Below, piece by piece: positions 1 through 40,900 of a stretch of 64,000 nucleotides of DNA (position 1 is its first letter; each line of letters starts with the position of its first letter). Both the position numbers and the translations under genes were made by a program. Under the pieces are notes generated by a model, which saw only the letters and a program-made list of their open reading frames with translations, was not told the origin of the DNA and made no database searches. Source of the stretch: Psammoneis japonica (taxonomy: Eukaryota); the NCBI GenBank assembly GCA_008632985.1, contig QPGO01000019.1, positions 310,001 through 374,000 on the forward strand, in the 5' to 3' direction.

Positions 1-434
1 GCCTTTGTCTTGTTCTTCTCAAACTCTGAGAGCTTTCCACGGCACTCGCCCAGTTCCGCCCTGCACTCATGGATCAACTGTCTGTTCTCGAGCTCTCTGT
101 CTGCATCGTCTTTGGCTGCAGATGCCTTCAGCACTGGTTTCTTGCCACTGAAATCCTTGCAGTTCATGTCTTCCAGTGAATGGGTTAAGTGCACGCCCTG
201 TTCGCACTCCTTCTGGATGCAACGCACTGGCTTTGTCTTGACTTGCTTGAATGTTGCGTTGCAAGAGTTGCTGTTCATGGAGGACGGATGGAATTTCATC
301 TCCGTGGTGCAGTTCTTGCTGTTGAATGCCTTCTTCTTTGAGTTGGAAGATTTGTGGCCTTTGCTGCTGTTGCCGCGACCATTGTTGCGGTCTTTTCCTT
401 TTCTGTGCGGGTTGCTCGACCCTCTGTCACTCAT
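1..434 (-). pseudogene. N-terminal gag fragment of a Ty1/copia (CoDi-like) retrotransposon running off the window, TpA-purged
   Basis: Own translation from ATG 434: MSDRGSSNPHRKGKDRNNGRG...EMKFHPSS...ATFKQVKTKPVRCIQKECEQGVHLTHSLEDM...HECRAELGECRGKLSEFEKNKTKA. Open to the window edge, resembles diatom copia gag, has no Tyr. Confidence 0.6.
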
Positions 435-1134
435 TGCACAGGCTGCTGATTGTCTCCTTTTAGACTGCAGACTTTCCAGTTAACAAGCACTTGTTGCTTG
501 TGACTCTTTAGAGTGAATGTTGAACCGACGAGCCAATGGCGGCAAACGGGAATCTTACAAAGAATCCTCCGCTCTCGTCACACTCGTCCTGGTTGCTTGT
601 GCGGCTGTGGTTTGCCTGGAAGATTGCTCAACACAAACTTCGTTCACTTGTCAGACATTTGTTTTAACAGACACTTCCCCAGTGCCGATCGACATGGATG
701 ACAAACCAGATGGTTCACTCTAAAGAGTGAGAATGATGTTGCGTGAACGACAGATTGATGACGAAGAAGACACAGTCATCGGAATGCACAAGTCATCGGA
801 TTGCACACGTGTGGAGCCTCACACATCTTTCACTTCAATTCACACATGTTCGGGTTGCTTTCACCCCGCATTCAAATGCTCCAACACATCCACAGCACAG
901 GAGGTGCAGGGTGAACTTGGTCATGCAGGCGGTGGTTGTTCCCATGGCCATTCTGGTGAGTGTGTTTTGTGGCACTCAACATGTTTTTTGTTTGCTCACG
1001 TGCTTTCTTTCTGTGTTTCATTTGAGTTGCAGGGGTGGAGCTGGGTGTTCAATGTCTTGCACCATGTGGGTGCTCAACATCTTCTTGCACCGTCACACAC
1101 CAGTGTCCATGTTGCTGTGGAGTCAGTGGCGCCA

Positions 1135-1625
1135 GATGCCCTGGTGCACCGGCAAGTGTGTGTTGCTGTTCATGTCAGTTCATCTGTGTTGTGCTCTCAC
1201 AACATTCTCTTTGCTTTTTGGCAATGAATGAGGTGGATCAGAGCAACAGCACTTCTGCTGCAAACTTGCATGCTCCAGAATCAGCAGCGTTGGATGCACT
1301 GGTGAGTCCATGTTGCCATTCCCATGGGTTGTGTTGGTTCATCCATGTCACACTCTCACAACATGATCCACTCTTTTTGGCGCTGAATGAGGTGGAACAA
1401 AGCAGCGGCACTTCAAATCATGGAACATGGAACAGCAGAGCTCCTGCTGCAAACTCGCCTGCTCCAGAATCAGCAGATGCACCGGCAAGTCTACATTGCC
1501 ATTCCTGTTGGTGGTGTCAGTCCATCCACATTGTGCTCTCACAACATGTTCTGCACTTTTTGGCAATGATCAAGGTGGCTGCCAGCAGCAGCACTTCAAG
1601 AAAGCGAGCTGCAACTGCTGCTGCA
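1135..1625. repeat. About three degenerate tandem units of ~150-190 bp
   Basis: Recurring GCACCGGCAAGT/GCACTGGTGAGT...CTCTCACAACAT...TTTTTGGC...GCAGCACTTC blocks. Confidence 0.7.
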
Positions 1626-1721
1626 ATCTCTGGGATGTTGTCTCCATCAGCGCCATCTAAGAATTTAAATGCAAACAACAAAACAAAATGTTTGTGGCAC
1701 AGTGCAAATGATTTTAATTTG

Positions 1722-1985
1722 CAGGTTCTGCAGGGACAGAGGGCGGGCACTCTCACAGGGAAAACGTGCCCCTGTTTCACAGTGAAACAATTTTCCTCAC
1801 AGGGAGGGGGGGTTAGATCCCACAGCATGAAAATGTTCATCTGCCACAGTTGACAGGTTCTGCAGGAACAAGGGTGGGCACTCTCACAGGGAAAATGTGC
1901 CCCTGTTACACAGTGAAACAAGTTTTCCTCACAGGGAGGGGGGGTCAGATCCCCAGCATGAAAATGTTCATCTGCCACAGTTGAC
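1722..1985. repeat. Two-copy tandem duplication of ~132 bp
   Basis: CAGGTTCTGCAGG...CTCTCACAGGGAAAA...GGGAGGGGGGGT(T/C)AGATCCC...CATCTGCCACAGTTGACA occurs twice. Confidence 0.9.
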
Positions 1986-2948
1986 ATGTCATTGCCAGCT
2001 GCACAACTGACAAGGTTTGAACTGCAAAAACGACACCCACAAGAAGAACAAAAATCACTGTGAGAAAGGAGGTGTCGATCACCACATTGCACGCTCTGAT
2101 GTTGTTGTGCTGCACTGGCAGCTCTTGTTTTTGCCAGTGAGCACTTCTTGCAGCACTTGAGGCTGAGGAGATTCAAGGTGTTGTTGAGATTTTGATGTGC
2201 TGTGCCCCTTTGCTTGTCAAAAATGCAGCATTTTGTGGCATTTGGCACAGGCATCAGTGGACTTGGCAGCTTTGGACTGACTGGGGTCATGGGGCCATGC
2301 TTGGCAGCACCAAGGACCTCCAAGAAGCCTTGTGTGCTGAGATGAGAGAATCATGAGACAGCTGGTGTGGTGGGGGTGCAGCTGCTGCCCCAGCTGCTTG
2401 GAGGTGCTCCCCAGGGCAAACATCAAAAACAATGGACAAGGCATGATTTGGTTGGAGTCAACATCTCAAACTGTGTGTGTGGTTTGTTCTGGCACTCTGG
2501 CCAGACTGACACCAGATTGTCACTCACTGCAAGAGAGGGCAATGCAGTGCACTGCTGCAGCGTGGAAGGTCCAACATGCCCCACCTGGTGTGACCCCCAC
2601 TCCACTCGAGCCATCTCTGCCAGGTGATGTGCAGCACGCACGGTGCCGAAAGGTAGCGACACAAGTTATGAACACATTGTACAACATGACATTGTCTTCG
2701 AATTAAAAAAAGTTTTTATAAACGTGCACAAAATTCAGCAACAGCAAGCTCCGATCCACACGTTCCAATGCCTTTCCCAAAAGTTTGGTGCTTCTTCTTG
2801 TCGTCGACATTGGCATTCTTCGCTAACTAAGTGACCACATCTCTGCATATACTTGAGTGACACTGGCTATTTCTTCTATTTCGTGTACAAGAAAATATGG
2901 AGAAGCAAAGGGTGAGTCTGGAACGGATGTATTGAAATATTTGGTTGC

Positions 2949-5299: not shown

Positions 5300-8200
5300 G
5301 CAAGCCACTCGACGGGGGTCACCCCCGGTTGCAACCCGCAATTGACATGACATTTTTTGAAGGGGGGGAGGCATTTGCAGCAGCAGCAGTGTTGTTTGTT
5401 CTTGAAGAAGAACACACACAGAAGAGAAAACACCGTGAGCCGCGTCTTCTTGTTCCTGCATGCAAGAAGCCCCCTGTGTCATGTGTCTCTCATGCAAAAA
5501 CATGAAAACACAGTGTCAACCAATTGCTGGGATGACTCTGCAATCAGCCTCACTTTGGTTCTTGCAATCTCGATGCTGCAGCAAACTCTCGACTGCTGCA
5601 CAATGACCTCACAATCGAACTGTTGCGATTGATTGCAAACAAAATTAGAGCTCTTTTTCCAGCTAAATGAGTGGAACAGCTTGATTTCTTTTAGTGGGCT
5701 TTCATGTTGTGGCTCTTGTTCAGGACTCACACTCTGTTGTCAACAAGAATCCTGTGTTCTTGACAAGCCTTGATGATCATGATTGACAAAGGGAGTTTGA
5801 CAATTTTTAGAACCTTCCAAGTGGGATTTAATGGTTGATGGAAATCAGTCACATCATGTGCATGTTCTTGTCAATTTTGTTCATCCACTCATTTCAACAT
5901 CATTTTTGCATCCGTCCATGATTAAACTGCTGACCTTCCAAGCAGGAAATGACAGTTGATGAAACTCGTCACTTGCTCTGTTTCATCTTTAACAACCATG
6001 TTTTTTTGCAACAATGTTCTGACATTGCTCATTTGTGACAATGATGCTGTTCAATTTTCTTGTTAACTTGTTTGTGCATTGGCTCCACACTGTTCATTTT
6101 GTGCTGCGCAGTTGTTCCATTTTGTTGTTTCTGCACTGCACACCAAACAATCCTCCCTTTTTCCCGCTCCAGTTCCTGTTGTCCTTTGCAGTCCCCACAT
6201 GACGGGGTGTGATGTTTTGGTCCTCCTTGTGTCCTCCCTTGCACCCACTCTTGCTCTTTCTGTGATCGTCTGCACCAGGCAACAATTTCATCCTCCAATG
6301 ATCAATTTTACATTCCTTCCATTTGGTTGGCCAAAGCATCACCTGGCAACTGGAGGAGAAAACTTTGTGCCAATGATTGGGTTTTGTGCATGTCTTGTGT
6401 TTCACATGATCTTGCTTCACATGCTGCTTCTGCTCACCTTTTGTGCCCTTCCCCATTGCCCGTCTTCCATTGCAGCTCAGGTTGTGTGTCCAGATGTCTG
6501 TGTGCAAAGATGTGTGCAAGTGTCAGTTGTTTGCACAGTGTGCCTGATCTCCATGCACTTGCCACTTCTTTTTCTCCCATTGTGTCTTGTGTCCTGCATT
6601 TTGTTCCATCCCATCTGCAATGCCATTGCCTGTCCCACTGCTCTCATTGTCAGATGTCAAATGCGACTTGAGTTTGCATTTTTTGTGTCTCATGAGGGAG
6701 CGACAATTTTCATGGTTTTGGCCAAAATGATTCCCATTGGCATTGCTTTTTCAGCAACAACTTTGCTTTTAAAATCAATGATTTCATTGCAACATGATGG
6801 TGTGAATGATTTGAACAACCCCAATGAATCATCCAGTCATTGATGCCACACATGCCATTCAAGAACAAGTTTGATTTTGTCACATCAATGTGTTCTTGTC
6901 AAGATTGCAATTTTCACACTCGTGCTGCACACTCCCAGCTCCAGGGCTTCAATCAACACCTTTTTGCCATTTGGCAATTTCAAAAATTGCTGCTGCCAAC
7001 AAGACAATTGCCTCTCTCCAGGAAGCTCAGAAAGAGTCCCTCAATTCCAGTGAAATGACAACTTGGAGACCAACCTTGTAAAGAAAAAGGGCAACTTGAG
7101 GGTGGGCCAGGCTCTTCTGTTCTCTCTTGGTTTTCTGTCCAAACAAGAGACAGGAGGGAACACCATGAATTTCCATTCAGTGACTCCCTGCACTGGTTGT
7201 TGTCAGCTCCCCTGGGACACGATGGAGGCACCCAAAAGGCCATCCAAAGACAACTGGGCACTTGCACTGTCACGCGGCATGGAAAGCTCCCTTGTCTCTG
7301 CAGGTGAGGCGGCTGGGCCAAAGCAGCAAGCTGGTCACATCAGACAGAAAAGAGGCTGTGTTGGCCCAAGACTGGCTGTTCCTTCCCAACCACCATTGTT
7401 GTTCTTGCCTCCTCAGGGATCCAGCAATGAAGTCTCTTGTCCCCATCCCAAGACAACTGAGTGCTTGTGCTTCCAATCACACAAGACAAAAAGGAGCTGT
7501 GCTGGCCCAAGACCAGGCTTTTCCTTCCCAACCGTTGTTGTTCTTGCCTTCTCAGGGACCCAATGAAGTCTCTTGTGCCCATTCCAAGACAACTGAGCAC
7601 TTGCGCTGTCACACAGATGGCTCCCTTGTCTTTCTTGCAAATTGGTTCTTGGCTGGGCCAAACCCAGAGTCATGTCAGATGGACAAGGTGCTGGCTGCAT
7701 TGACACAAGACAAGGCCTGTGCTTCCCAACCATTGTTGTTGTTGTGTCCTCTGTGATCCACCAATGGAGTCACCAAGAAAAGCCATCCCAAGACAACTGG
7801 GCACACAGATGGTTTTCTCATCTCTGCAGGTGGGGTGGCAGGTCCAAACCCAGTCATGTCAGAGAGACAAAGGGCTGCATTGACACAAGACACTCCTTTG
7901 CTTTCCAACCATTGTTGTCGTTTCATCCTCTGGGACCCATGGAGTCACCCAATGTCACCCCAAGACAATGGAGCACTTGCCCTGTCATGACACAGATGGT
8001 TTTCCTGTCCTTGCAGGGCTGGGCCAAAGAACCCAGTCATGTCAAAGAGACAGGGTGCTGTGTGTTGACACAAGACAAGGCCTTTGCTTCCCAGCACTGT
8101 TGTCATTGCATCCTCTGGGACCCAATGGAGTCATCCAATGTCATCCCAAAATGTTGGAGCACTTGCACTGTCACAGATGTTTCCATTGTCTCTGCAGGTT

Positions 8201-11200
8201 GGCCAGCTGGGCCAAACCAGTCATGTCAGAAAGACAGGGTCTGCATTGACACAAGCCAAGGCATTTGCTCCCCAACCATGGTTGTCGGCATGTCCCTGGC
8301 AACCCACTGGAGTTCTCCAATGCCATCCCAAGACAACTGCACAACACTTCTGTCGGACAACCATTTTCATCATTTTGAGTGCACCCAAACAATGTGCAGT
8401 TTGTCAACGACATGGATTGAAGGCTTTGCAACAGCTCAGAGAGCATCCAATGTGCAGAAGGACATTGAACATGACCAATGGCAAGAGTCAACAAACACAA
8501 TCAGTGATGTTGAAGCCCCAACAGCAGGATTTGTCCGGAACTTGTTGTGCACAGGCAGCTCTCTCTGCAAGGCTCCAAGTGCCAGAAATCATCACACCTG
8601 CTGCAATGATGAGAACAGACTTTTTGATGGGCAATTTGACAAAGCAGAGCACAGACCAGTGCTGTCAACAGCCAATTGTAACTGGGGGCCACATGCCATG
8701 ACCTCGAGTGTGCACAACACACCACAACAGTTTGAGCTGGCAAACTCTGGCATGCCAAGACAGAAAACACATGCATCAATGTCTGTTTCTTCACTGCAAT
8801 GCCCAGTCTAGTTCACCCATCATTGTTGTTGAACAACGCAGTCACTGAAATGGGACAAAACAAACAATGCCCCAAGAGTCCTTGCACCAGTCACAACGAC
8901 AAGTGCAGTCATCATGTGAAACAGCAGATCATGACAAAAACACTCACACAGCAAACCCCCCTCACTGTTGCGCCATGCCCTGTGAGTGTCACTTGCACAC
9001 AAGAGAAGTCCAAGACATCCATGAAAATGGTCGAAGTCCCTGTGTCCTTCGCAAACTTGATCATGCTTTGTCCAGTTGCTCTCCAAAAGGTGGCATCCAA
9101 ATCCAGCTTCCAAAAAGATGTTCCAGACCCACAATTGTCTTTTCAACATCCATGAGCATCGTTCACATTGTTGACAAGATGAATGTGTCACACTGAGGGT
9201 GCGCACATTGTCCGTGCTTTTTTTCTTTTTTGCTCACAAGTGCGGATCTCAACCACCCAAAACTGGGACCCACCCTTTTTCCAAACCAAAGTGAGGCTGC
9301 ACCTGTGTGTGCCACACTGCATGAACAATGCATTGAGTGACATTCACATCATTTTGAAGAGACTGTGGCAACAAGCAATTTGTTCACACTCACCTGGGCC
9401 ATTTGTCTGGGTCTTGCACTCAACAAGCGCACATCACAGAATCGATGATTTCACAGCTGCTGCATTGGTCAAAGAGTGATTTTCACTCTGCAAGTGACAA
9501 ACTCTGCAGCACACAGAGAAAACACTTGTGTGAGCCACAGAGGCAACTTAAGCAAAAGCAGAGATCTGACAAATGGAAGGGAAAAAAAAAACAAAACTGT
9601 TCTTGACAAGTGTTTAAAATGTGGACAGAATGAGCCACACAGGTGGCTTAAAATGAGCAAGAAAAATTTGTTTGTTTGTGTGCTGAGAAACAAAATTGAC
9701 AATTGTCTGTGTTAAAGATCTGCAAATGTGATCAGCACACATGTGAAAATTTCAATCATTGACAAGTTGTGCTTTTGTTGAGCACAGAAACATGTTGCAG
9801 ACTGCAGGGGGCACCCAATTGCTGTGCCATTGCATTCAACCCATTGCTGCTCCACAGTGATGCAATCAAATGACTGCAATCTGATTGCTGCAGAAAACTT
9901 TGCAATTGGTCAATGCTGTGAAAACATCACGCACCATGATCAAAGCACAATGATGAAGGAACTGTCATCAATCTTTTTCTTAAAAACCCACAGCCTGCTG
10001 GCATTCTCCTCAAACACTCACCTTGCAACAACAGCGACTGCCGCCAAGTGCACTGTGGTGTGGTGTGCTGCAAGCCCTGGCAGAGCAATGTCAGCAGCAT
10101 GCATCACCCACAGTGTGTGGTGTCTCTGCACTGCAAACTCAAACTTGTTTTGCTCACACAGCCACAGGGCATGCTCTTGACGGAGCAACCCTTTGAGAGT
10201 GACAAGCTGGTTTGGTTTTCAATTGCTTGAAATGATGACACAGAGACTGGGTGCCTGACGAAGTTGCAGCAGCAGGGGGTGTTCAAGAGACAGACCTTGG
10301 CTCCTGTGCTCCTTGACTGTGCAGCAGCTCTGCCCATCCCTGCCCCTTTCATCTGTCATGTTTCATCCCTTGCCTTTGTAGAATCTGGTGCAACACAGCC
10401 ACTCAACAGTGTTTGCACCATGGCATGCACAGCAACAGGGCAGGCTGTGTTGCATGGGCTCATTCTTGTGTGCACACTCACACCCCTGCTCATGTGCAGA
10501 GATGCACAGAACAATTTTGTTCATTTTCAAATGGACAAATGCCCCCCACCATTGCAAACTTTTGTTCACTCTGGGGGCCTGCAAGAAAGCTGCATGTCCA
10601 TGCTTTGCACTTTCCCACTCTCAACACAGGGAAAAACTTGTAACCTTTGTTTGGCCATGAGGCACACTTGTCATTTCATCCATTTGCACAACTGTTGCAT
10701 CATTTTGTGTTCAGACAAGCCAGCTTCAAGTTTGTCTTAACTCATCCAGAGGGTGTGTTTGTGCCACACTTGTCTTGACACAACACTGGCTGGCCTGTGG
10801 ATCAGCACATGTGTGCGTGCAACTGCTGTCAGTGTCATTTTAATTTCACCTTTGTTGTGAAGCTCAAGGGGTTGCACTCTGCACACTGTCTTGTTCAAAC
10901 ATGACCCATTTTGTGATGAGTTGGCAAGATCACTGTGCTCCTCTCTTTTCCACCTGATCCAGAGCACAGGGGAGTTCAGTCAGCCTGGAGAGCACAGCAG
11001 CTCTTGTTTTGTGTTGTGTGTGGAGCAGCTTTGACAGTCCTTTTTTTGCACTTGCCAAAGCAACTGCCACAGAAATTGTGAGGGGCCAGTGCCAGTTCTT
11101 TTGACATCACTCATTTCATCATCCAGCACCAAGTCACAGGCAAAGTGCACCTGCTCACTTGAGAGCCACTGGATGCCTCTTCTTGCATCCAAATGTAAAA

Positions 11201-11600
11201 GTCTTCCAATGTTTTTGTTCATTTTGTTGCAATGAACATTGTTCAAATGTTGTCACAGCAATGCAGGCACATGATGGTCATCAGTGGTGTCTGCATCCAA
11301 GGATGACAATGCACTGACCCTCTTCATTTTCACAGTCAATTGAACTGGCAGTCCTCCAGAAGACAATTGAGCTGGCACAAGCACTCCTTTGCACATTCCC
11401 ACTGAGAGAATCAAGATGTAAAACTTGAATGGAAATGGCTCACCAAGCTGCCAATGCATTGCCAAAAAGTGACACCAAGTGATGCTCTTGAACAAAATTG
11501 CAGCCGTTGACACCTTTTCTTGGATTGTCAAAAGACTCTGATCTTCCAACACTCTCTTTCAATGGAAAAAGGCGAGAATCCAAGGCAGAAACACTTGATG
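5300..11600. mobile_element. Unclassified, heavily degenerate repeat block lacking both TpA and CpG
   Basis: Near-absence of TA and CG; spurious Cys/His/Met/Trp-rich ORFs in all six frames; contains a tandem array. Confidence 0.65.
7130..8350. repeat. Degenerate tandem array of about 6-7 units of ~125-190 bp
   Basis: Recurring CCCAAGACAACTG(A/G)GCAC, GCTGGGCCAAA...CAGTCATGTCAGA and TTGACACAAGAC...TTCCCAACC motifs. Confidence 0.8.
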
Positions 11601-21595: not shown

Positions 21596-21701
21596 CCACC
21601 ATGCGTGTTTTCCCTAACACACTAACTACTTGAAGCCCCCAAGAATGCCCAAGAGAATTCCATTTTCTTTACCCGTATATTACTTTTTTCGCTAATTGAC
21701 A

Positions 21702-23028: not shown

Positions 23029-23430
23029 GGTCGCAGAGCGCTAGCCCTATCTCCTCTGAATTTTGGCTGAACAAGATCCTGTGAGTACGGTACCGTAGTA
23101 TTGGGTACGGAAGGATATTTGTTAGTATCTTCTCTGAATTGAAAAGGATATTTGTTTATTGAATAAGCATTTTGGTTTTTTCTGGAGGTCTAAGTAGTAG
23201 TTTCGCTGTTTGCACTCGTGACTCGTGATTCAATTCAATCTTAAAATTTACACCGCTTCTTAGAGCGGCCACCTAAGGCTTACGCCCGATTTTCCCTTTC
23301 AATCCACAACCATAGATGGGGACAGAACGTCAATTTACAAAACAAGTGCACTTCTCGCATGCAGTTGTGGGGCGATGGTTGCTGCTCTTCATCGTCAGGA
23401 GAGGGCCTGCAGTCTTTTGGTGGCCGCTGG

Positions 23431-23706
23431 TGACAGGATTTGAACAGGATTTAGGTGCGCGCGAAATGTCGCGCGCTGTTTAGTTTACCGCGCACAGTTT
23501 TGTGTGCTTTAGTTCCGCGCGCTCGCGCGCGATGTAGTTTGCTTTCGAGCCACAAGGCTCACAAGAATAACAACAGCAGCCCGATCATACCGACTTACAC
23601 GTCTTTCGGCTCCTGTGACGGTCTCTGAGTGGAGACTCATCTGCTGTTTAGACAGCAGTAAGGAGTCATTGTTTGAATTCTTGCCACTTGCCTTCAATTT
23701 CTGTCA
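23431..23706 (+). repeat. 5' LTR
   Basis: Aligns without gaps to 30292-30567 with 17 differences, all transitions. Confidence 0.97.
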
Positions 23707-24646
23707 GATTGACAGTCTTGCTCATTGTCAACCCATTGAGCAACCGCCATCGTCGTCGTTGATTTACCAACGACGCTGTTTCAATTCTACGTGGACCTCC
23801 GTGTGTGTTCTACATACATCGGCAAGTCTACGCGCATTCAATGCCAGGGCATCGGCAGGAAGTTAACGTCACCGTCAAGTCTCCTTGCCGCTGGACATCT
23901 GGATTGATTGTGCCACCTTTGGTCGCTGAAGACATGCATTCAACGGTCACATCCAAGTCTGTCCTTGATCCTCATCCCTTGACACACCTGTTCATCGGTC
24001 AACGGTCAAGAACCCCACATGTTCAAGGATCTTCGTCGCTGAAGACATGTGTGTGTGTGCATGTCTTCACGGCCAAGAACCTGCACCCACTCTTCGGACT
24101 GCGGTTTTGCTGCCACTCTACAAGCACACCGAGTCCATTGCACCTGATCTACCCCGGACTGCTGGTGCTCTGCAGTTCTGCCAGGTCCACGAGGACGACT
24201 GTGAGAGCAAGTGGCCGTGACCACAGCCTGCGTTGGGGCGAGGGTGCTTTCCCGCGTTTGTTCGTTCGTCCACAGCGCCTGACGCCTGCGTCAACTGGCC
24301 AGCCTGATCGGGAAATCCAACCGATGTAAAACAAGAACGGTTCGGGGGTCTTGTCCACCTCCAGTCAGCTCACCTGCAGGGGTTTGCAACCCGCTGCTCT
24401 GCTCGCAAGCAACCCAAAGCGCCACCAGCTGCGGGTTTTCTACGTGCCGGCACAACTCTGCGGACCGGATGGGAAGTTTAGCACTTGACAACGAACGGGA
24501 TGGCAAAGCCCGGCGACTTCTGATTTCAAGATAGATCAAGATTTCAAGTCAAGTCCATTTCAAGCCAAGTCCATTCTCACCCAAGTTTCAAGTCCACCTT
24601 CGCTTCCCAACAAGAATTGATTGTCCTGACACCACTTTTGTCTGCC

Positions 24647-25795
24647 ATGGTTCTCACTCGTCAGCAACAAACCGATGGTTTCGAGCACGTTGTTGGAACC
24701 GTGCTTGCCCAAGGTGCTGGGAGCCCTCTTCGTTTGGCTTTGGCCCAAGACGGCACGGACTCGCATCAACAACTGTTCACGTTCACACCGTCCCAAATCG
24801 ACTCGCTTGAGTGCGACAACGGCACCAATGTCATCCCTTTGCCCCGTGGTTGTGAGAACATGTTAGCAGCTCTGGTTGGTCTGCACATTGTCAAAGCACA
24901 CAAAGGTCTTGACGTTGCCAATGACTTCTCGTTGTTCGCGCATGACGAGTTCCTTGCCTGCCGCCTCAGCCCCGACTGCATGTCTTCTGTGTCCATCGGC
25001 AGCTCACCCCTCGCACCTCCGCATGTCACCAACCCGACCAAGGCACGCGACCCGGTGCGGGACTTCAAACGAGGCATCAAGCGTGATCCCACCGCTTTCA
25101 CGGCTCTCAAATCCAACAAGCAGTGGCACACTTGGCACACCTCACTTGTGGCACAAGCCCGTGCCCAAGACGTCGAGTGCACTCTAGACTCGTCGTACAA
25201 ACCGACCAGCCCCGAAGACAAACTGCTCTTTGCTGAACAGCAAAAGTGCGTGTTCGCCGTCTTCGAACGCATCCTTCTCACCGACAAGGGCAAGGCTCTC
25301 ATCCGCGAAAATGTGGGGTCTTCTGACGCACAGACCGTCTGCTGAGCCTTGTCTGAGTGCGCGCTCGCCTCCACCCGTGCATCTGTCGAGTCCTCCACCC
25401 TGCCAACGTGCCTTGCCACCGCACGTCTTGGTGATGGTGCTTGGAAAGGTCCGACCCACGGGTTCATCCTTCATTGGCAAGATCAGTTGCGCAAGTGCGA
25501 GGCACTCATCCCGGCCAGTGACCACTTCTCTGAAGGACAGAAGCGCGTCATGCTCGAGAATGCCGTGCACCCTGTCGAGGAACTCCGTGCTGTCAAGAAC
25601 CAAGCTGATCAGCATCGTACGCAGAGTGGCAAGAGCCTCACATGCGATCAATGCTGTGGCTTGCTCCTCTCCGCGGCAGCCCAATGCGACAGCACGTTTC
25701 AACCCAAAGACGACACCTCGAGCTCCCCGCCGCGCCATGTGCACACACGACGTCTGCTCCGAGGAACCGTCCGACGATGTGTTCTACGACATTGA
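24647..25795 (+). pseudogene. copia gag, interrupted by TGA at 25343-25345 (probably CGA->TGA)
   Basis: MVLTRQQQ...DFKRGIKRDP.AF..LK...W..W...AQARAQDV...FAEQQKCVFAVF...FILHWQDQLRKCE. Confidence 0.85.
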
Positions 25796-28700
25796 CAGTG
25801 ACATTGACGTCCTTCAGGCCAGTGCTGCCTGCACCCGTGGTCCCAGCCTCACCGGTGACCAATGGAAACGTCTCCCTCCCGACCACCAACGGATTTGGGA
25901 TTCGTTGCCCCATTCCTCCAAGGCGATCATCCTTGAGCATTCTCGTCCGCCTCCCCGCAACCCGCGAGACAGCAACTGCCATGAGTCCGTTACGGCCAAC
26001 CTTCATGACCAACGCCTTGGGAGTGACGGTGATGTCAACTTGTCCAACACGACTCCTGCTGACTCTGGTGACTCCGCTCCAAATGTGGGTGCCACTTCGG
26101 ACAATCCCATCCTGGCGCACCTCACCAAGCACAAGCCACTGCCACCCGGTGATCTGCACTGTCTGTTGTCTCCTGACCAAGCCCCCAATGCCAGTCGACC
26201 GGGGCCATCCGCCGCTCCCTCTACCCCGCCAGCTTCTGCCGATGACATGGAACTTAACGGCCGCACTTGCTGCCACGTCAATGACCACAATGTCATTTGC
26301 TCTGCCTCTGCTCATCGCTCCACATGCACTGGTGCTCTGGTCGATCGTGGGACCAACGGTGGCATTGCTGGCGACGACGTTTGCGTCATTGCACGCACCT
26401 CTCGCCAAGTCGACGTTCAGGGCATTGACGACCATCAATTGGTGGACATCCCCATTGTCACCGCTGGTGCCGTCATTGAGACCCAGCGTGGTCCCGTCAT
26501 CGCCATCCTCCATCAGCACGCATGCACGGGAAAGGGCAAGACCATCCATTCCTGCGGCCAGCTCGAATGGCACAAACAGGATGTCAACGATCGCTCTGTC
26601 AAGGTGCCCAACGGCTTGCAACGTGTTGCCACTCCTGATGGCTGTGTCATCCCCATTGACATCAAGGCTGGCCTGCCTTGTGTTGCCATGCGACCTTGCA
26701 CTGACGCCGAGCGGGACACCCTGCCCCATGTCATCCTCACTGGTGATGACACATGGGATCCTTCCGTCCTCGATCACTCTGTCACTGACGACGACCAGTG
26801 GTGCGACGCGATCTCTGACCTGCAGGACGATCCCACTGCCAACCTGTTTGACGAATGCGGCAACTGCCGTCATCGTGTTGTTGTCAACGAGACCATCTTG
26901 TCCGCTTCCTTGTCTGCCGATCACGCGTCCGCCCCAGATGATCACCTCATTCCGAATGACGGCGTGTTCTGCAAGTGTCATCTACACGCGATTGACCCCA
27001 AGGACGATGACGTCCCGCCCCCGGAGCGCACTGTGCAGCCCAAGGATCCACCCTTCGAGTCTCTTTGGCCTCACTTTGGCTTCCCACCTGCTGATGCGGT
27101 CCGTCACACTTTTGACTGCACCACGCAGTGCGCCCGCATGCCCGCCGGTGCACACCTTAGGAAGGCCTGCAAATCACCCAACCCCGCCCTTAATGTGCAC
27201 CGCCGCAACGAGCCTGTCGCCACTGACACCGTTTGTGCCGACACCCCGGCCGTTGACTCTGGTTGCACCAGTGCCCAACTGTTTGTTGGCACCGAATCTA
27301 CTGTCACTGACATCTGCGGCACCAAGACGGACAAAGAGTTTGTCAACACACTCGAGGATCAGATCCGTGAGCGTGGTGCCCCACCCAAACTCATTGGCGA
27401 CCGTGCTCAAGTTGAGATCAGCAACAAAGTGCTCGGGATCCTACGGGCCCTCTTCATCTCCAGCTGGCAAAGTGAGCCTCACCAGCAACACCAAAACTTT
27501 GCCGAGCGTCGACACCAGACCGTGAAGCGCATGGCGAATGCTGTCATGGATCGTTTTGGTTCGCCCGCCCACACATGGCTGCTGGCGCTCATGTGTGTGT
27601 GCTTCACACTCAACCACACAGCGTCCCCACGTCTCCACTGGCGCACGCCCCTCGAGACTCTCACTGGCTCCACCCCGGACACCAGCCCATTGCTTCGCTT
27701 TCACTGGTGGGAACCCGTGCACTTCCACCTCGATGACTCCGATTGGCCGTCCGAATCCCGTGAGTTGCGTGGACGCTTCGTTGGCATTGCTGAGCACGTC
27801 GGCCACCAGATGACCTTCAAGATTCTCTCTGACGAGACTCAGAAGATCCTCTGCCGGTCCAACGTCCGCTCCGCTGCCACCGATCCTGCCGTTCGAAACC
27901 TGCATCTTGATCCTCCTGATGGGGAGCCACCTGAACCCATCATCAAATCTCACCATGACGACAACCCCGTCGATTCTTGCCATGGCAACAACCCCGTCGA
28001 TTCTCCTGATGGGGAGATCAGGACACCCAAGATGCCAGTTTTCGATCCGCAAGACATCATTGGACGTACCTTCCTCATGCAGCCACAAGAGGACAGACAA
28101 CGCCACAGAGCTCGCATCGTCAAGGCCATTGAAGACCACGAATGGAAAGTGAACGGCAATCCCGAGCTCACTAAATTCGTCTGCTCTGTCAACAACGACG
28201 AATGCGAGGAAGTCCTTGCCTGCAATGACATCATGAATCACATTGAGCAAGAAGACGAAGACACTGCTGTTTGGAAATTTCGACGCATCGTGTCACACGA
28301 AGGACCTCTGAAGCCTCACGACCCAACCTGGAAAGGCTCAAGCTACAACATCATGCTTGAATGGGAAAGTGGGGAGATCACGTCTGAGCCTCTTGCCATC
28401 ATCGCCAAGGACGACCCCGTCACCTGCGCCATCTGTGCACGAGAGAACGGACTCCTCGACACGGATGGCTGGAAGCGGTTCCGCACCATCGCGAGGCGCC
28501 AAAAGAAGCCATTTCGCATGGCCAACCAAGCCAAGCTTTGCTCCTTCCGCACTGCACCTCGCTGCAAGTACGGATGCGAAGTTCCCCGGAACTACAAACA
28601 TGCCATGTCACTAGACGAACGCAACGGCAACCGCAAATGGGGAGACGCAACTAATCTCGAGATGGACCAACTCGACGAATACGAAGTCTTCCATGACTGC

Positions 28701-30344
28701 GGGCCCTTCGAGTCTTCCACTCCTCCTGCGGGACACAAGAAGATCCGAGTGCACCCAGTGTGCGACGTGAAACACGACGGTCGCCACAAGGCACGACTCG
28801 CAGCCGACGGGCACCTCACGGACGTACCCATCGATGGTGTCTGCTCTGGAGCAGTCTCCCTCCGTGGCCTTCGGCTGATGATTTTCCTGGCCGAACTCAA
28901 CGAGTTGGAGACATGGGCCACCGACATTGGCAATGCCCACCTTGAAGCCACCACCAAGGAGAAGCTTTGCATTGTGGCCGGACCCGAATTTGGCAAACTC
29001 GAAGGACACATCCTTGTCATCCACAAGGCCCTGCATGGACTGCGCAGCTCCGGTCTCCGCTGGCATGAGCGCTTCGCCGACTGCCCACGAGCTGAAGGCT
29101 TCTTCCCCTGCCGCGCCGAACCCGACATTTGGATGCGCAGGAACGGCGACCACTGTGAATGCGTTGCCGTTTGTGTGGATGACCTCGCCATTGCCATGAA
29201 GGACCCTCAATCTTTCGTTGACACTCTCACGGAAAAGCACAAGTTCAAGCTCAAGGGTGTGGGACCCATTGAGTTCCATCTGGGTTGCGACTTTTCCCGG
29301 GATCCTGACGGAACCTTGTGCCTGTCTCCGCGCAAGTACATCGAGCGCATGGTCGACAGCTGCACCCGACTGTTTGGGGAGAAACCTGCCACCAACGCCC
29401 TGTCACCTCTGGAGAAGGGTGACCACCCCGAACTGGACACTTCTGAACTGCTGGGACCCGATGGCATTCACAAGTTCCAGTCTCTTGTTGGTTCACTCCA
29501 ATGGGCAGTGTCCCTTGGTCGAATTGACACCACCACGGCCGTCATGTCACTCTCTAGCTTCCGAGCTGCGCCCCGTCAAGGCCACCTGGATCGTGCCAAA
29601 CGCGTCTGTGGGTGCCTCTCCAAGATGCGACACGGTGCTCTCCGCGTTCGCACGGAAGAGCCCGACCATTCGGATCTCCCTGCTCCGGCCTGTGAGTGGA
29701 TGCATTCCGTGTGCGGCGAAGCAGAAGAGATGATCCCGAAGGACGCTCCACCGCCCCTTGGCAAGTTCGTCACTGCCACCCACCACGTCGATGCAAACTT
29801 GCACCATTGCGTGCTCACCGGACGCTCTGTCATGGGAATGCTCCACTTCCTCAACAAATTCCCTTCTGATTGGTTCTCTAAGAAGCAAGCCACCGTGGAG
29901 ACTGCGACCTGCGGGTCTGAATTTGTTGCCGCAAGGACTTGTGTCGAGCAGATTGTTGACCTGCGCATCACCCTGCGCCACCTTGGCGTCCCGATCCGTA
30001 ATGTCAGTTGCATGTTCGGTGACAACAAGTCGGTTGTAGACAGTGCCACCATCCCGCACTCCAAGTTACACAAGCGACACACCGCACTGTCGTTCCACCG
30101 TGTGCGTGAGGCAATTGCCTCTGGTTGCCTTGAGTTCCACTTCATCGAAGGCTCCCGCAACCCTGCTGACATCCTCAGCAAGCATTGGGGTCACTCCCAA
30201 ATCTGGGACCTTCTCCGCCCCCTCATGTTCTGGAACTTCATTTCATCCGAAGTCGAATCTGTTTCTGTGGCTCCTCAAGCAAACTGGGGAGTGACAGGAT
30301 TTGAACAGGATTCAGGTGCGCGCGAAATGTCGCGCGCTGTTTAG
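25740..30344 (+). pseudogene. copia pol (protease, integrase, reverse transcriptase, RNase H) with mutated catalytic and conserved motifs
   Basis: LVDRGTNGG (PR); ATDT..SEPHQQHQNFAERR (IN); HKARL, TDIGNAHL, ALHGLRSSG, CVDDL (RT); HVDANL, TCGSEFVAAR, GDNKSVV, NPADILSK (RH). Only 6 Tyr in the 1704-aa ORF. Confidence 0.95.
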
Positions 30345-30567
30345 TTTGCCGCGCACAGTTTTGTGTGCTTTAGTTCCGTGCGCTCGCGCACGATGCAGTT
30401 TGCTTTCGAGCCACAAGGCTCACAAGAATGACAACAGCAGCCCGATTGTGCCGACTTGCATGTCTTTCGGCTCCTGTGACGGTCTCTGAGCGGAGACTCA
30501 TCTGCCATTTAGACAGCAGCAAGGAGCCATTGTTTGAATTCTTGCCATTTGCCTTCAATTTCTGTCA
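30292..30567 (+). repeat. 3' LTR
   Basis: Preceded by AAACTGGGGAG and followed by the TSD GCTGG. Confidence 0.97.
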
Positions 30568-30572
30568 GCTGG

Positions 30573-31975
30573 CGGCCGAGTTGCAGCTTTCTTTGCAACC
30601 TCTGCCACTTCCAGCCAGCATCATTTGAAGTCAATGTCTTCAGCTTGAACTTCTTCCATTGTCCTGTCAAACCACCTGGCATGTTGGGGAAGGGAGTGCT
30701 GCTGGAATTTGGCCTCGTCTCGGGTGCTGGTTTCTCGGCCGCCCTCTCCCACATGCGGTGCTGCCACATGTCGTCCCATGCTGTGCTCCGCAACTGTTCA
30801 ATGAGTCTGGATGCCCACTGCAGTCCCATGTTCCTTTGTTCAAGAAATTTGCAGCATGCCTGTTGGGTTGTGCCACCCACTTTGCAGTCAAGAATCCTTT
30901 GACAAGAGCGCCATCTTGCCCAAGGTTTCTCTTGTGAGTCGAGTGCAGCCTGCACATGAGGATGGTCAGACACTGGGATCTTGTTGTGTTGCCCCTCACA
31001 CCAGGATTGCATCAGCCTGAGGATGCTGGCTTGCAAGTCTGGGCAAGCCAGTTGTTCTGTTGGCCATTTCTTGAGATTCTCCATCTTCTTGGTCCAAAGC
31101 CCTGCATCTCAAAACATGATCTGTCCCATCGTCTCCATCCTCTCTGCATTGTGAGCAGGTGGAACTTTCCAGTTTTTTTGACAGCAAAGATTTCTGTTCA
31201 TTGACAATGAACCAGTCTTCCATCTTGGTTGCCACAGTTGATGGAAAGTGGGGCATCTGCAAATTGCAACCCACAGCTTCCCTGTCAATTTTGGCATGAG
31301 TGGGCTCCGGATCAAGTCTCTTCTGTGCCAGCACAACTCTGCCGGCAGACCATGCACATGTTCTGGAACCATGCTTGGCTGCCACAATGTCAGTGTCTTG
31401 TCCTGGAGTTTGATTGGCCAGATGGGTTGCAGCACTTTGCGCGGCATTGCGTCAGATGATCTCGCAATGCTCCCCAGCAAAAGAAGCCTTGGCCAGCAAG
31501 CCCATCTCCACATTGAGCTGTTCTGCATGAGTCAGTTCATGCAGTGGCTTGTGTTTGTTCTTGTGTCTGTCAACTTCTTCTGCCCCAATGACAATTGGCA
31601 GCTCTTGCACCATCAATCGCATTGGATGTGTTTGACCACAATTTGTCAGCTTGGGATCATCACAGGATTTGAAGAAGCAAGTCCACAAACTGACATCACA
31701 GCAGTCACAGGCCAACACCACCTTTCCATGTGCAATGTTGCAGTGTTTGCATGGCCTCCTGATGAAGGCAATTGGGCCAAAGATGACACTCAACTCCTTT
31801 CTGTAAAGTGTCAAATCTGTGCTGTCACCTGGAGTTTGGTTGACTCCTCGACAGCGGTGAGTGTGTGCTTTGCTTGGCAGCAATGTCATGCCTGCTGTTG
31901 CCAATCCTTCTTTGTAAGAGCCATCCGCAACACAGATGGCAGTGCCTTCTTTGACTCCTTTGACTGGAGCCTCTA
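30573..31975 (-). mobile_element. Degenerate 3' part (RNase H and Cys/Trp-rich tail) of a diatom non-LTR (Ambal-like) retrotransposon, into which the copia element inserted
   Basis: Fragments PGDSTDLTLYRKELSVIFG, VVLACD, EVDRHKN...LTHAEQLNVEMGLLAK, CSQCREDGDDGTDHVLRC and WASRLIEQLRSTAWDDMWQHR. Confidence 0.65.
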
Positions 31976-32335
31976 AATCCAGCTGGAACCCATGGGGAAT
32001 GAATGACCACTCTGCATTGCTGAGAGGTCGTTCTAGGTTCTAGTGCACTCGGTGGAAGAACAGGCGAAGTGTAATCCGAGTTGGAAGTGCATCTGGAGGT
32101 AACTGTGAGACGCAACCGTTTGGTTGATGGCAAGCGCTGTGACTCCTTCGTCTTTGGGGTAGTCTTGTGTGCATGACTCAACCCGAGTGTTGATCCGCTT
32201 AAATGCTCTATTTTCTTGGGGTGAATACATCCACGGTGTGCTAGAATGTCATTACCATATCTACTTTCAGCACCCAAGATTCCCCAAGAGAACTCTTTTA
32301 CGCTGCCCATATATTACTTCTTCCGCTCAATGGCC

Positions 32336-33692: not shown

Positions 33693-33971
33693 GGTCACAG
33701 AGCTCTCCTTCTTGAAAAAAATGCCGTTGGCTGCGAGATCCGGTGAGTTTCCAACCAATAATTGCTAATTGAATATATAATAATTATAGTATCATCTCTG
33801 AATTATATTAGAAAATTGATTCATTGAATTAGCAATTTTGATTTCATGTTCCAAGTCGATGTCGGTGCCAATTGCAATGGCGTCTCGTTTTGTGATTTTC
33901 TCACCAGTTCCTGTTTACATCCTTGCGATTTCTGCTGGAAGGATTACTAGTGTACTCTTATTTGAAGCACC

Positions 33972-36549: not shown

Positions 36550-37600
36550 AAAACTTCGAAGACTTCGAAAGATTCCATATTCCATGACATTTCTGCAAAT
36601 TATTCTACGTGCAGAGCTCGTAGGTTGTTGGTACTTTATAAACAAGGGGCAATAGATAAAAGTTCGAACAAATATGTTGTGTGTTCGAAGCTTTCGAATA
36701 TTGTTCGAAGTGTTCGAAGTTTTGTCGCAAAAATATTGCCCTCCAAAGATTTTGATTTGAGTCACTTATTCTTCGAACTTTTCATATTGCCCTTTTGGTC
36801 ACTTCGAACTTATTCGAACAAAGTTCGAACTTATTCGAACAAGTTCGAAGTGTTCGAACAAGTTGAATTTTAATTATTTATTTAGTCATTTACACATCAT
36901 TACGAATTGACAACCACCGATTTTTGGCACGCGACACCACCACGATGACACGTTCCGTCGAACGAGTTCGGGCCCACCCGGAACAGTTACCAAGCCATTT
37001 GGGTACAGCTATGTCAATGAGGTACTTGCGGATCATATATGTCTCATTGGATTGGCAATTCTTCGTGGTTGACAAATGAACGACGGCAAAGGATTCACGT
37101 GTTGTTTTGTCGTGCTTTGGCGCAGAAAACCTGCGCAGGCCTGCTCTGAGCCACAAGCGCGCGCAACAAGCTTGTAGCACATCATCTCATAGCTGCCTGC
37201 ACTTGTCGCTTCGATTGTATGCACCGTATCTCATCATCTCATTGACACCGGCAGATGCTCGAGACTCGAGCAGAAGAGAGCACAAAACAACAACGTGAGA
37301 TGTCATGCCGGTGCCGCATCGCGCGTGTTGCACCACCAGCAGCACGCACATCATTCGGCTGCAGATGTCATCATGACATTGTCATTTGTCTCCCTGCCTT
37401 GCTTTTATTTATGAATTATAAACTTCGAACTTCGAACAACTTCGAACACTTCGAACTTTCTTTGGGGCAGCACAAAGGGCAACAGAGAAAGAAATTTCAC
37501 AATGTTTGAAGCTTTTGTCCATCCTGCACGAGGTCCACGTAGAGACACATTGACAGGAATTAGGAATCTCTCAAATGTTTTTCGAAACTTCGAAGTTTCC
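36550..37600. repeat. Two clusters of TTCGAA palindrome repeats in opposite orientation
   Basis: GTTCGAAGTGTTCGAAGTTT at ~36703, TTCGAACTTATTCGAACAA twice at ~36803-36860, and AACTTCGAACTTCGAACAACTTCGAACACTTCGAAC at ~37421-37456. Confidence 0.8.
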
Positions 37601-37965
37601 TGGATCGCCCTGTTTCGTGTAGAGTTCACGACCAATTGTCTTTGTTCACAACTGAGTGCATTTTTCAACATGCCACGCCGGCAATCCCAATTTTACAGCA
37701 CTTTCGAGCTCTCCTGAAAAACCGTGCCACGCACCCGTCGCAGGGAATTTGTCGATTTTTTAGGATGTCCCCACGACCTCTCATGTCCTCAATGATCATT
37801 CTGCGAATCCGAAGAATTCATCTGTGCTGAACAACCCACCCCGTTCCAAAATCCGAGGGACACACTTTCCGACCCCCCGACCCCCCGACTGCCCGACTGC
37901 CCGACTGCCCAACTGCCGGACCGACATGAAAAAGTCTGCAATCACCAACCACTGAGTGGTCAATG

Positions 37966-40900
37966 AAAACCCGGGTGTGGCACCCGGGTTTTCACATTGG
38001 CGACAGCCGTTAGACCAAAAAAACAAATGTGCATTGACAACGGACTAAATCCCTTTTAGCCCTCTCTTCATCACTGTTGATCCATGGCGCGCGCAGCAGC
38101 AACCGCCACAAACCGATTGCCAGCTGCTGTGCCAAAGATTGTGGGCGCCACACCCCAGTTTCTGGGGCGATTGTCCTGGGTTTTCGTGCGCGATCTGTGC
38201 GCCGTAACCTGCCGGCATGTTTGTACGAAAAAATGAGCGGCAGTGCAGCATCAAGCTCGGCATGAAACGAACGTTGCTGCTGCAACAACAAAAGACGAAT
38301 TGAAGAAGAGTGCTGTGGCGGCGCTTTTCAACCAAGGTGCTGTTGATGCAGCGGCGGTGGCTGGACCAAGCTTGCCATCTTGTGTGAGACGAGTTGGCCG
38401 TGATGAACCATCTGGTGAGCTCAATCTAGAAGAAGCGCTGGAGGAGGCCAATGAAGAAGGTGATGGAGGTGACTCCGATGAGGAGCATGAAATTGCCGAC
38501 ACGCACGATGACACAAGGGCTGACGCCTTTGCTGATCGGCAAAGAGCCGTGGTCAATGGCGAGTCTGATGAACAGACAGTTGAAGTGAATGACACCACTT
38601 CGTTGCTGCTTCACCGCGGGGATGTCGAGCACCCCCACAATCTTCACATCCCAGTGCCGCCAACTGACTGGGTTCCTTCAGCTCAAAAGGTGCAACAAGG
38701 CGAGCCTGAGTTCACGGATGCAGACAATCCAGGCGGCTGGAGTCAGTTCACCTTCCGCCCTGAATTTGATGCCAAGGGCGCCAAACAATGCTTGCGCCAT
38801 TTGCTCCCAACAGGTGCCGCTCCTGTTCCCGAAGATGAAGAAGGGAGACGTCTGGTCAACAATTGGGAATTTTTTTGTGATGGGTGGACACGTGAAAGAT
38901 CATCCCATTTTGTTCCTGATGATGCTGGAGTGACGCCATCCCTGTCAAACAGGAGTGGAGCATCAAAGGACAATCTGTTCCCAGAATGCAGGAAGGGCCA
39001 CTTGGATCTGGCAATGCTGAAAGCGCTTGGCATGACGAAGGAAGGAATCAGCAATCATGATGCTCTCTTTTTTTATCAGTTGATTTTACCAGTTTGCGAC
39101 ATTTCAAAGTCGGGTGTCGACAATGATCCACGAAAGCCGTTTTACACAGAGGTTGAAAGGTTCTCTAACTTGCACGCTTTGAGAGACCCAAATCTGTTCA
39201 GCTCGCATGGGCACAGTGCCAACATGGTTGCTGCAACAGAGTTGGTGCATTTTGATGGTGGTGTGGTGGTTCGTGATGGGGTGAGAGGTGGCAGTGATGG
39301 CGCCATTCATCGACGGTGGCAGAGCGGATCAGACTGTGATTCAACAATGTCAACGGCGATGCACCACACCCGCTGGCTCCAAATGAAGCATCTGATCAAG
39401 CTTTGCGACAACAGTGCGGCGCCACAACGTGGAGAGGATGGGTGTGACCCAGCACGCAAGCATTCCATGCTGTGTGATGTCATCACACACAATGTGAATG
39501 CGATCACTGGAGTTGAAGACCTCGACATTTGTGGTGACGAAACAACGTGGGGGCGTGCAGGTTACGGAGAGGCTGGCAGCGGATTGACTGGTAGAATCGC
39601 TGGGAAGCCGGGCATCACAAAGGGGGGGCAAACAGTCATTGTCAGTGACGTGCACCGCATTCGACCGCAAGCGTGTCTACATCGTCACAAGCTTCATCTG
39701 AAGCCTCAAGGTTGGGGAGCAATGGGCCCGCTTGAAGTGCGAATGATGATGGAGCAAACAGCACCCATGGTGCAAACTGTCGGGAGCAATGATGATGATG
39801 GAGGGCCGAAGAAGATGTTCATGGGCAAGCCTCATGGCACTTGGGACAACTGCTTCTCAGGCGACCAGATTGTGGACTGGCTTGGCCAAAATGGATTTTC
39901 TGCAACTGTGACATGTCGTTGAGATCGCCTCCCATCCGGAATCTCTGCAAAGCATTTTCACAAGAAGGCGACGCGGGTGGATGACAGGTCACGCAGTGAA
40001 GACGGTCCCCAGATCGGATGCGAACAGGGAGTGCCAACGGCTTCATTGTTCATTTCAATCTACCTCCTCCTGCAACATTGCAACGGTGAACGCTCTCAAC
40101 AAATGCTCAAAATTTGCAACACATCGTGAACAAGGCCAGGGAAGAAGCAAGCGCCATTGGGGCATTGAAATGAACGAAGCAAGAATGACGCACCTCAGCA
40201 CCTGCTCACGAATTGATTCTGTTGATCATTTGATGAAGAATGCACACATGTTTTGTCGATCGTGGAAGTGCTGGCACTCAGCAATGCTGCATGGTAAGAA
40301 GCTTGCCGCAACAGTCGTGTGTGACATCTGTCTTGAATGTTGTGAAGGGAATGTCGATCCTGAGTGGCGCGATGACAATCCCACATCATTCTGGTCGTTT
40401 CGAGACAGGTGTTTGGAGCAAATGTTGGAGTGCAAGCCGGAGCGTCGCATGTGTCCTGGAGACTCAGCAATGAGAGTGTCAACCCAACAAAACCAGCAAC
40501 GCCATGACCGTTCGGTCGACAGCGCACCTCGCTTGACTGCCACAACGGGTGAGGTCGTCACAACAACTCAATGCCGGGAGGCAAAACGTGGTGGCCATTC
40601 ATCCCGCTTGTGTGGTGACCTGACACAATTGCGGAGGCACATTGATGGAGTGGAGACGGGTTTGAAGCACCCGTGTCTTTGTGTTTGGTGTGGCAAAGAT
40701 GCACACACGCGATGCAACGTCTGTGGGAAATTCGTGCATTGTTCAGCGTCCCACCATGGGAAACATGGTGATGAGAATTGTTTTTTTCTCTGCCATGATG
40801 AAGGATTGTTTGGTCTTGCACGAGATGACACCAAACTTTTTGTTTGCAAGCGCAAGTCAGATTGGAAAGAGCCGTCGCAAGCAAGAAAGCGGGTGAACGC

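Follow-up and report, generated by a model that had tools for sequence, protein, structure and literature searches.

The 64,000-nucleotide stretch of Psammoneis japonica DNA analysed here (contig QPGO01000019.1 of assembly GCA_008632985.1, positions 310,001 to 374,000 of the forward strand; hereafter the window) contains five gene islands, a copia retrotransposon and blocks from which the dinucleotide TpA (TA) has been almost completely purged (Table 1). In the purged blocks, the observed/expected ratio of TA is 0.00-0.16, CpG is nearly gone and TG/CA is approximately doubled, while the gene islands show TA ratios of about 0.4-1.0 and normal CpG. The edges of the blocks are sharp: no TA occurs from 1908 to 2653, and six are found in the following 70 bases. 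The purge comes in two grades, TA loss with normal CpG (blocks E and G) and loss of both dinucleotides (blocks A-D). We describe which TA sites survive in the purged DNA and what their neighbouring bases suggest about the process that removed the others.

Table 1. Copia element, TA-purged blocks and their residual TA sites in the window.
Feature	Position	Strand	Description
Copia 5' long terminal repeat (LTR)	23430..23707	+	Almost unmutated, 10 TA; the 'before' state
Copia 3' LTR	30291..30568	+	Mutated; 3 TA left, all TTAG; 7 TA of the 5' LTR converted
Copia coding region	~24647-30344	+	RVT_2 domain; one frame shift near 25700
Purged block A	1..2640		TA and CpG nearly absent, TG/CA about doubled; 13 residual TA
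Purged block B	5300..11600		24 residual TA: YTAR 17 (TTAA 12), YTAY 1, RTAR 6, RTAY 0
Purged block C	42900..45450		4 residual TA: TTAA 2, GTAA 1, ATAA 1
Purged block D	48800..56250		18 residual TA: YTAR 15 (TTAA 11), RTAY 0
Block E	24000..30500	+	Copia internal region and most of the 3' LTR; TA-purged, CpG-intact; 36 TA left
Purged block F	30500..32000		Starts within the 3' end of the copia 3' LTR (30291-30568); 4 residual TA, RTAY 0
Block G	37500..41500		TA-purged, CpG-intact, no family match; 27 residual TA, TAT/ATA-containing classes nearly gone
Purged block H	41500..42900		4 residual TA

The 13 TA sites of block A comprise five TTAA, three TTAG, two CTAA, two TTAC and one CTAC; ten are therefore YTAR (Y, pyrimidine; R, purine), three are YTAY, and RTAR and RTAY are absent. 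Our recount agrees exactly with that of an earlier reading made from the letters without database searches (hereafter the sequence-only reading), which had reported ten TTAA/TTAG/CTAA, three TTAC/CTAC and no RTAY. Ten or more YTAR among 13 sites has p = 6.5e-4 at a YTAR share of 0.30, the first-order expectation from the NT and AN dinucleotides of the block itself, and p = 1.2e-6 at the island share of 0.151. Over blocks A-D, 59 TA sites remain (YTAR 44, YTAY 6, RTAR 9, RTAY 0), and TTAA makes up 30 of them. The five gene islands hold 1334 TA sites (YTAR 202, YTAY 364, RTAR 344, RTAY 424). The comparison of NTAN tetramers between these blocks and the islands, which the sequence-only reading had proposed as its own check, gives clearly unequal rather than equal proportions (Fisher p = 9e-23). 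With an RTAY share of 32% in island TA, the absence of RTAY among 59 residual sites has a chance of 1.6e-10. Addition of blocks F and H brings the survivors to 67, with 47 YTAR and still no RTAY; TTA or TAA is present in 60 of the 67, and TTAA accounts for 31. The observation is confirmed as exact, highly non-random and replicated within the window.

Survival was estimated per strand-symmetric flank class over these six blocks and their 67 TA sites, with island counts scaled to the purged length as a proxy for the ancestral state. TTAA survives almost untouched (0.94, 31 of 33.1 expected), followed at a distance by CTAA/TTAG (0.22, 14 of 64.9) and GTAA/TTAC (0.13, 14 of 104.9). CTAG (0.05, 2 of 41.4), CTAC/GTAG (0.04, 5 of 129) and ATAA/TTAT (0.007, 1 of 138.7) are nearly lost, and no site is left in ATAT, GTAC, ATAC/GTAT and ATAG/CTAT together (0 of 408.5 expected). 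Uniform survival is rejected by a likelihood ratio test (p ~1e-27). TA sites lacking a TTA/TAA flank survive in only 7 of ~579 expected cases in the old blocks (1.2%), and the proposal of the sequence-only reading that the process runs close to saturation holds on this measure.

We fitted Poisson models in which the two half-sites of each TA (5'-TA-N, read on each strand) contribute their own loss rates. The negative log-likelihoods are -26.2 for uniform survival, -85.5 for a distinction of Y versus R, -100.1 for A versus not-A, -117.2 for a multiplicative model, -121.1 for four additive rates and -122.8 for the saturated model. The four-rate additive model reproduces all ten classes (deviance ~3.4 on 6 degrees of freedom), with fitted values of rate times time, by the letter after TA, of 5.2 for T, 2.1 for C, 1.5 for G and 0.03 for A. 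The order of classes is the same with a flank-matched YR proxy and with island DNA outside long open reading frames (ORFs), where TTAA survival becomes 0.81. The base at +2, that is, after TAA, is also non-random in survivors (A 47, C 19, G 17 and T 8, versus 27, 17, 18 and 28 expected; p = 2e-6). In the younger blocks, classes containing TAT survive in 2 of ~102 (block E) and 4 of ~83 (block G) cases, while the TAA, TAG and TAC classes survive at 0.13-0.57, ranked as in the old blocks. The better description of the pattern is that sites flanked as TTA or TAA, above all TTAA, are refractory and that ATA/TAT-flanked sites go first.

The copia element is young and shows TA-specific loss and its flank dependence in a before-and-after comparison. 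In the 5' LTR, TA occurs as TTAG four times, TTAC twice and GTAG, ATAA, ATAC and GTAA once each. The corresponding 3' LTR conversions are TTAG>TCAG, TTAC>TTGC (twice), GTAG>GCAG, ATAA>ATGA, ATAC>ATGC and GTAA>GCAA, so that TTAG is kept at three of four sites and other TA at none of six (Fisher p = 0.033). Among the 17 differences between the LTRs, these seven TA>TG/CA changes are accompanied by five of CpG type and by two TG-versus-CA columns (four positions) of ambiguous origin, one of which is TTAT in other copies of the family. Site 23586 has been hit in both LTRs in opposite ways: where other copies have TTAT, the 5' LTR has TCAT and the 3' LTR has TTGT. The mutated tract starts a short way into the element. 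One or two hits (23586 and perhaps 23645) lie in the 5' LTR, and beyond about 23800 the copia element of the window reads TG or CA at places where other family copies read TA. Since RNA editing would give both LTRs the same changes, and the two LTRs of this one insertion differ at seven TA sites, editing of retroelement RNA by ADAR is excluded and the changes arose in integrated DNA.

The coding region tells the same history in amino acids. Compared with 120 homologs, the copia protein contains 0.35% tyrosine (Tyr) versus a mean of 3.87% (minimum 2.86%), 3.9% cysteine (Cys) versus 0.97% and 5.06% histidine (His) versus 3.52%. Alignment with the 70 of the 120 listed homologs that exceed 1600 residues gave 904 conserved columns. 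The element differs at 143 of them, led by Tyr>Cys (26) and Tyr>His (10), and no other substitution occurs more than five times. Since this loss of Tyr to Cys and His dominates, the copy was hit by both TA>TG and TA>CA after diverging from its family. Conserved Tyr codons number 47, including the 26 that now encode Cys and the 10 that encode His; those after a purine (RTAY) were converted 17 times. Isoleucine codons, as a second two-way reporter, offered three usable columns. A search with the copia protein for related loci returned one distant metagenome locus (48% identity), which was left aside, and none in viral contigs.

Other copies of the family were compared by means of contigs from the sequencing run that contains the window DNA, with 40 listed of 870 differences. 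In 21 of these 40, other copies have TA where the copia element of the window has TG or CA, and the contexts lost in this way include ATAT, GTAT and ATAC. The family is very abundant, with a summed contig depth of 60,000-150,000 over 23400-30700 versus ~65 for the single-copy DNA on either side. Among the listed sites, the unmutated letter accounts for about one sixth to nearly all of the summed depth, and it forms the majority at no more than about half of the sites of TA type.

These comparisons bear on two explanations that require no neighbour preference. In the first, the repeats were rich in TTAA and free of RTAY from the start. TTAA is somewhat denser in noncoding DNA than in ORFs (1.75 versus 1.09 per kb), and TTAG makes up four of the ten TA sites of the unmutated 5' LTR. 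However, RTAY is plentiful in all unmutated sequence examined (32% of island TA, and ATAC in the 5' LTR), the listed family differences place ATAT, GTAT and ATAC in other copies where the window copy has TG or CA, and conserved RTAY Tyr codons existed, 17 of which were converted; we consider this explanation hardly credible. In the second, a context-blind purge was complete and the residual TA was made later by ordinary mutation of TG/CA or other dinucleotides. Given the abundance of TG/CA in the old blocks, some TA must have been newly made there by C>T and G>A changes. But TA regrown from the purged NTGN/NCAN pool would be ~21% YTAR and ~25% RTAY, compared with 70% and 0% observed. Moreover, the three TTAG of the young 3' LTR are retained rather than new, because the 5' LTR has TTAG at the corresponding positions. 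Such regrowth as the main source of the survivors is very unlikely.

Flank dependence itself can be read in a stricter form. Taken literally, the sequence-only reading makes TAY on either strand the target: editing would strike an A that precedes a pyrimidine, with YTAR as the sole immune context and RTAY doubly exposed. RTAY is indeed absent among both the 59 and the 67 survivors, YTAR dominates them, and the Y-versus-R model is far better than uniform survival (p ~1e-27). The direction of change also leans this way: conserved Tyr codons became TGY 26 times and CAY 10 times (p = 0.011), TTAC/GTAA sites became TTGC/GCAA in 8 of 9 cases, and composition arithmetic in the old blocks assigns ~0.70 of TAY but ~0.15 of TAR to TGY and TGR, respectively. 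Nevertheless, the Y-versus-R wording fits the ten site classes far worse than A versus not-A (-85.5 versus -100.1) and than four rates (-121.1). The higher average loss of pyrimidine flanks is driven by T as the fastest and A as the slowest letter, whereas TAG and TAC have similar rates (1.5 versus 2.1); CTAG belongs to YTAR, yet its loss is as complete as that of CTAC/GTAG (survival 0.048 and 0.039). A doubly exposed RTAY should give Cys and His at 1:1, but the ratio is 12:5 after purines and 14:5 after pyrimidines, and YTAR sites were themselves converted (TTAG>TCAG twice, TTAA>TCAA twice, TTAA>TTGA once). The codons of the copia element, from which the motif had been derived and which the YTAR excess was said to support independently, cannot show a preference for Y, because TAA and TAG are stops, which leaves TAY for every sense codon starting with TA; the codon argument is forced by the genetic code. 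A literal TAY target is accordingly quite unlikely. The inference of context selection among surviving TA stands, while YTAR as a category gives way to TTA/TAA flanks (60 of 67 survivors, with CTAG lost); the YTAR/TAY wording is a usable approximation, a coarse proxy for the finer flank rule.

The flank is a far better predictor of survival than of the base that has changed. At sites with TAA on one strand, pooled over the LTR pair, repeat pairs, family contigs and Tyr codons after T, edits at the other half-site outnumber those at the TAA half-site by 12 to 6, so that the expectation of a TAY target that the edited A sits by the permissive flank is only weakly borne out. Strand choice appears locally correlated. 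The 21 TA>TG/CA differences along copia fall into 7 runs, compared with 11.5 expected (z = -2.0). Runs of TG type and CA type span ~100-300 bases between 23571 and 26935, and the seven conserved Tyr codons converted within the initial 1.1 kb of the coding region have all become TGC, although each follows a purine. Internal repeats contain 32 discordant TG-versus-CA columns (RR 9, YY 9, RY 10, YR 4), in which ancestral TA and CG are not separable. Direction may be blurred by patch-wise exposure of strands and possibly by a second contact at -2.

The loose tie between flank and direction is also what one would see if the duplex site as a whole were the target, its fate set by the shape or deformability of the TpA step (TTAA versus ATAT) or by protection of bound or modified TTAA, with the strand chosen otherwise, through replication, transcription or patch-wise exposure. 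The 12:6 and 3:3 (TTAT/ATAA) splits, the same-strand runs, the opposite hits at 23586 and the multiplicative site model, which remains compatible, all agree with this. On the other hand, the additive half-site model is better by 4 log-likelihood units, and no sign of a TTAA-binding or TTAA-modifying factor appeared in this analysis. In nearest-neighbour terms GTAC is the most stable of these duplexes and TTAA is weak. Stability does not order the classes, since GTAC is fully lost and TTAA is kept. We regard action on the duplex site as unlikely, if less so than the TAY target.

The reading that we favour, at a probability of roughly 78%, is that the residual TA sites are the footprint of a neighbour preference of TpA -> TpG/CpA (A:T to G:C) hypermutation that has run near to completion in silent repeat DNA. 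Loss is fastest at TA flanked as ATA/TAT, intermediate with G or C flanks and slowest where another T precedes the T or another A follows the A, so that saturation leaves almost only TTA/TAA-flanked sites, half of them TTAA, and a further A at +2 adds protection. The agent would be an enzyme that edits DNA; the simplest candidate is an adenine deaminase, which has been proposed for Bigelowiella (see below). The putative enzyme would require T at -1, disfavour A at +1 and +2 and possibly T at -2, and act on either strand in short same-strand patches.

Several observations weigh against this neighbour-preference reading. The rates fitted to survival predict a split of ~98:2 where 12:6 is found, and TTAT/ATAA sites divide 3:3 in direction. 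Composition arithmetic in blocks E and G gives 0.35 for TAY>TGY and 0.59 for TAR>TGR, opposite to the old blocks, which shows the island proxy to be rough; we do not rely on these estimates. The additive model has only a moderate advantage over the multiplicative one (-121.1 versus -117.2). Block E retains six conserved Tyr codons, three GTAC, two CTAC and one ATAC, and because GTAC and ATAC are among them, RTAY can survive in a less saturated tract; conversely, TTAA became TCAA twice in the copia element relative to other copies, and is thus not immune. Finally, all ancestral expectations are proxies, and the survivors number 67 from a single 64-kb window.

The two grades of purge suggest that TA is removed first and that slow CpG decay follows. 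Outside TA, CpG and TG-versus-CA columns, only ~2 of 278 positions differ between the two LTRs. Since the LTRs differ so little otherwise and blocks E and G keep their CpG, the TA purge is fast relative to both CpG decay and background mutation. The CpG loss of the older blocks would be a second, slower process, presumably the decay of methylated CpG. Block H contains an old fragment of this copia family in inverted orientation (42128-42925, minus strand). In block A, three tandem units of ~185 bases (74-78% alike) and two of ~135 bases (93% alike) lie at 1173-1600 and 1722-1989, and one unit keeps TTAG at a place where the matching unit reads TCAG. Summed contig depths of 1,700-7,600 show that further repeat families occur at 36073-38073 and 42076-43399, and the repeat at 36001-36500 is not hypermutated (TA observed/expected 1.04). 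The 1.4-kb pair 21623-23042 and 32258-33706 (81.6% identical, both in islands) was considered as a mutated and an unmutated copy and rejected; its substitutions are of all kinds with no TA-specific pattern, as in ordinary diverged paralogs.

Among known systems, repeat-induced point mutation (RIP) of Neurospora and other ascomycetes converts C:G to T:A at CpA and raises TpA. The purge resembles RIP in its dense, region-limited transitions in repeats, its dinucleotide context and the inactivation of mobile elements. The chemistry is the reverse: A:T changes to G:C, TpA is erased, no stops are created, and TAA and TAG are removed. The TpA ratio of 0.0-0.16, the TG/CA ratio of ~2 and the direction read from the LTR pair and the Tyr codons all depart from what RIP produces.

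A much closer parallel is the TpA-restricted A:T>G:C hypermutation of giant-virus and virophage DNA integrated in Bigelowiella natans (Mettrop et al., bioRxiv 10.64898/2026.01.13.699255). According to the main text of that preprint, TpA becomes TpG or CpA in confined regions, low TpA with high CpA and TpG persists over the long term, and an adenine deaminase is proposed (10.64898/2026.01.13.699255). In living Bigelowiella lines the rate of such changes is elevated, and mutation-accumulation lines yielded 231 de novo TpA mutations. The dinucleotide, the products and the confinement to foreign or mobile regions are the same as described there. In the window, A>G or T>C changes at TpA are found in the LTR pair, the Tyr codons and the family copies, and the affected DNA is of mobile origin with neighbouring genes spared, given the sharp block edges and the affected copia element. 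Unlike the Bigelowiella case as presented, the targets here are a retrotransposon and other repeat DNA, CpG loss accompanies the purge in the older blocks, and the TA ratio falls to 0.0-0.16 versus 0.45 in the Bigelowiella region derived from nucleocytoplasmic large DNA viruses (NCLDV) (10.64898/2026.01.13.699255). The terms 'trinucleotide', 'tetranucleotide', 'flanking' and 'context' never occur in the main text of the preprint, supplements aside, and no neighbour rule is given there. In our search of the literature on TpA hypermutation, this preprint was the only relevant find, and no listed title or abstract described a diatom case or a flank rule. The flank rule is the new element and rests on one window and proxy expectations.

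The known adenosine deaminases differ from the inferred preference in the base after the edited A. Bacterial TadA recognises the motif UACG (PMC13170351). For fungal mRNA editing by Tad2-Tad3, described also as Tad2-Tad3-Ame1 (PMC11156358), it is reported that U is needed at -1 and that +1 is enriched in A/G and depleted in C/U (PMC9600606). These enzymes share with the process in the window a strong requirement for U/T at -1, and TadA also has a pyrimidine (C) at +1; all events scored here lie at TpA, with the limit that sequence cannot tell A from its partner T as the attacked base. However, they act on RNA hairpin loops, and the order T>C>=G>>A at +1 is opposite to that reported for fungal Tad2/3 and overlaps TadA only in accepting C, as TadA wants C followed by G, whereas T is best at +1 here. 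ADAR, which hyper-edits double-stranded RNA, is reported to have weak neighbour preferences, with slight enrichment of G/A at +1 and a 5' bias against G and for U (PMC9600606; 10.64898/2026.01.13.699255). Its hyper-editing resembles the purge in clustered A>G changes and in favouring U on the 5' side. In contrast to those reported preferences, T at -1 is obligate and A at +1 strongly disfavoured in the window, and one LTR and adjacent non-retroelement DNA were changed in place.

We tentatively propose, as a possibility we hold to be well below even, that the genome bears the imprint of a natural editor of adenine in DNA whose footprint spans 4-5 bases; it would require T at -1, reject A at +1 and +2 and perhaps T at -2, and act in same-strand patches on silenced DNA. 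As part of the same tentative proposal, its profile would match none of ADAR, fungal Tad2/3 and TadA.

Frames of 200-400 codons without a family match are open in the purged DNA at 1026-1853, 1517-2350 (minus strand), 6067-6843, 7597-8811, 42896-43507, 49226-49918 (minus strand) and 51309-52004 (minus strand). Because TAA and TAG become TGA, CAA, CAG or TGG, no new stops arise and only TGA is left, such long frames are a by-product and not genes. Elsewhere in the window, an uninterrupted frame of at least 2486 codons (56542-63999, plus strand) runs past the window end and has a protein kinase domain and a short match to glycosyltransferase family 2, and a 767-codon frame at 46154-48457 has a weak kinase match.

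For annotation, long open frames in purged DNA are therefore meaningless, as TAA and TAG have been removed and stops are never made, while transposon 'proteins' that are poor in Tyr and rich in Cys and His mark the process. TpA-erasing hypermutation has so far been documented in one 2026 preprint, and the neighbour rule narrows the search for its agent: it argues against a specificity like that of ADAR or fungal Tad2/3 and predicts that TTAA and TTTAAA-like sites are refractory. If true, the profile of the editor would be a concrete biochemical signature by which the enzyme may be found in diatoms and Bigelowiella.

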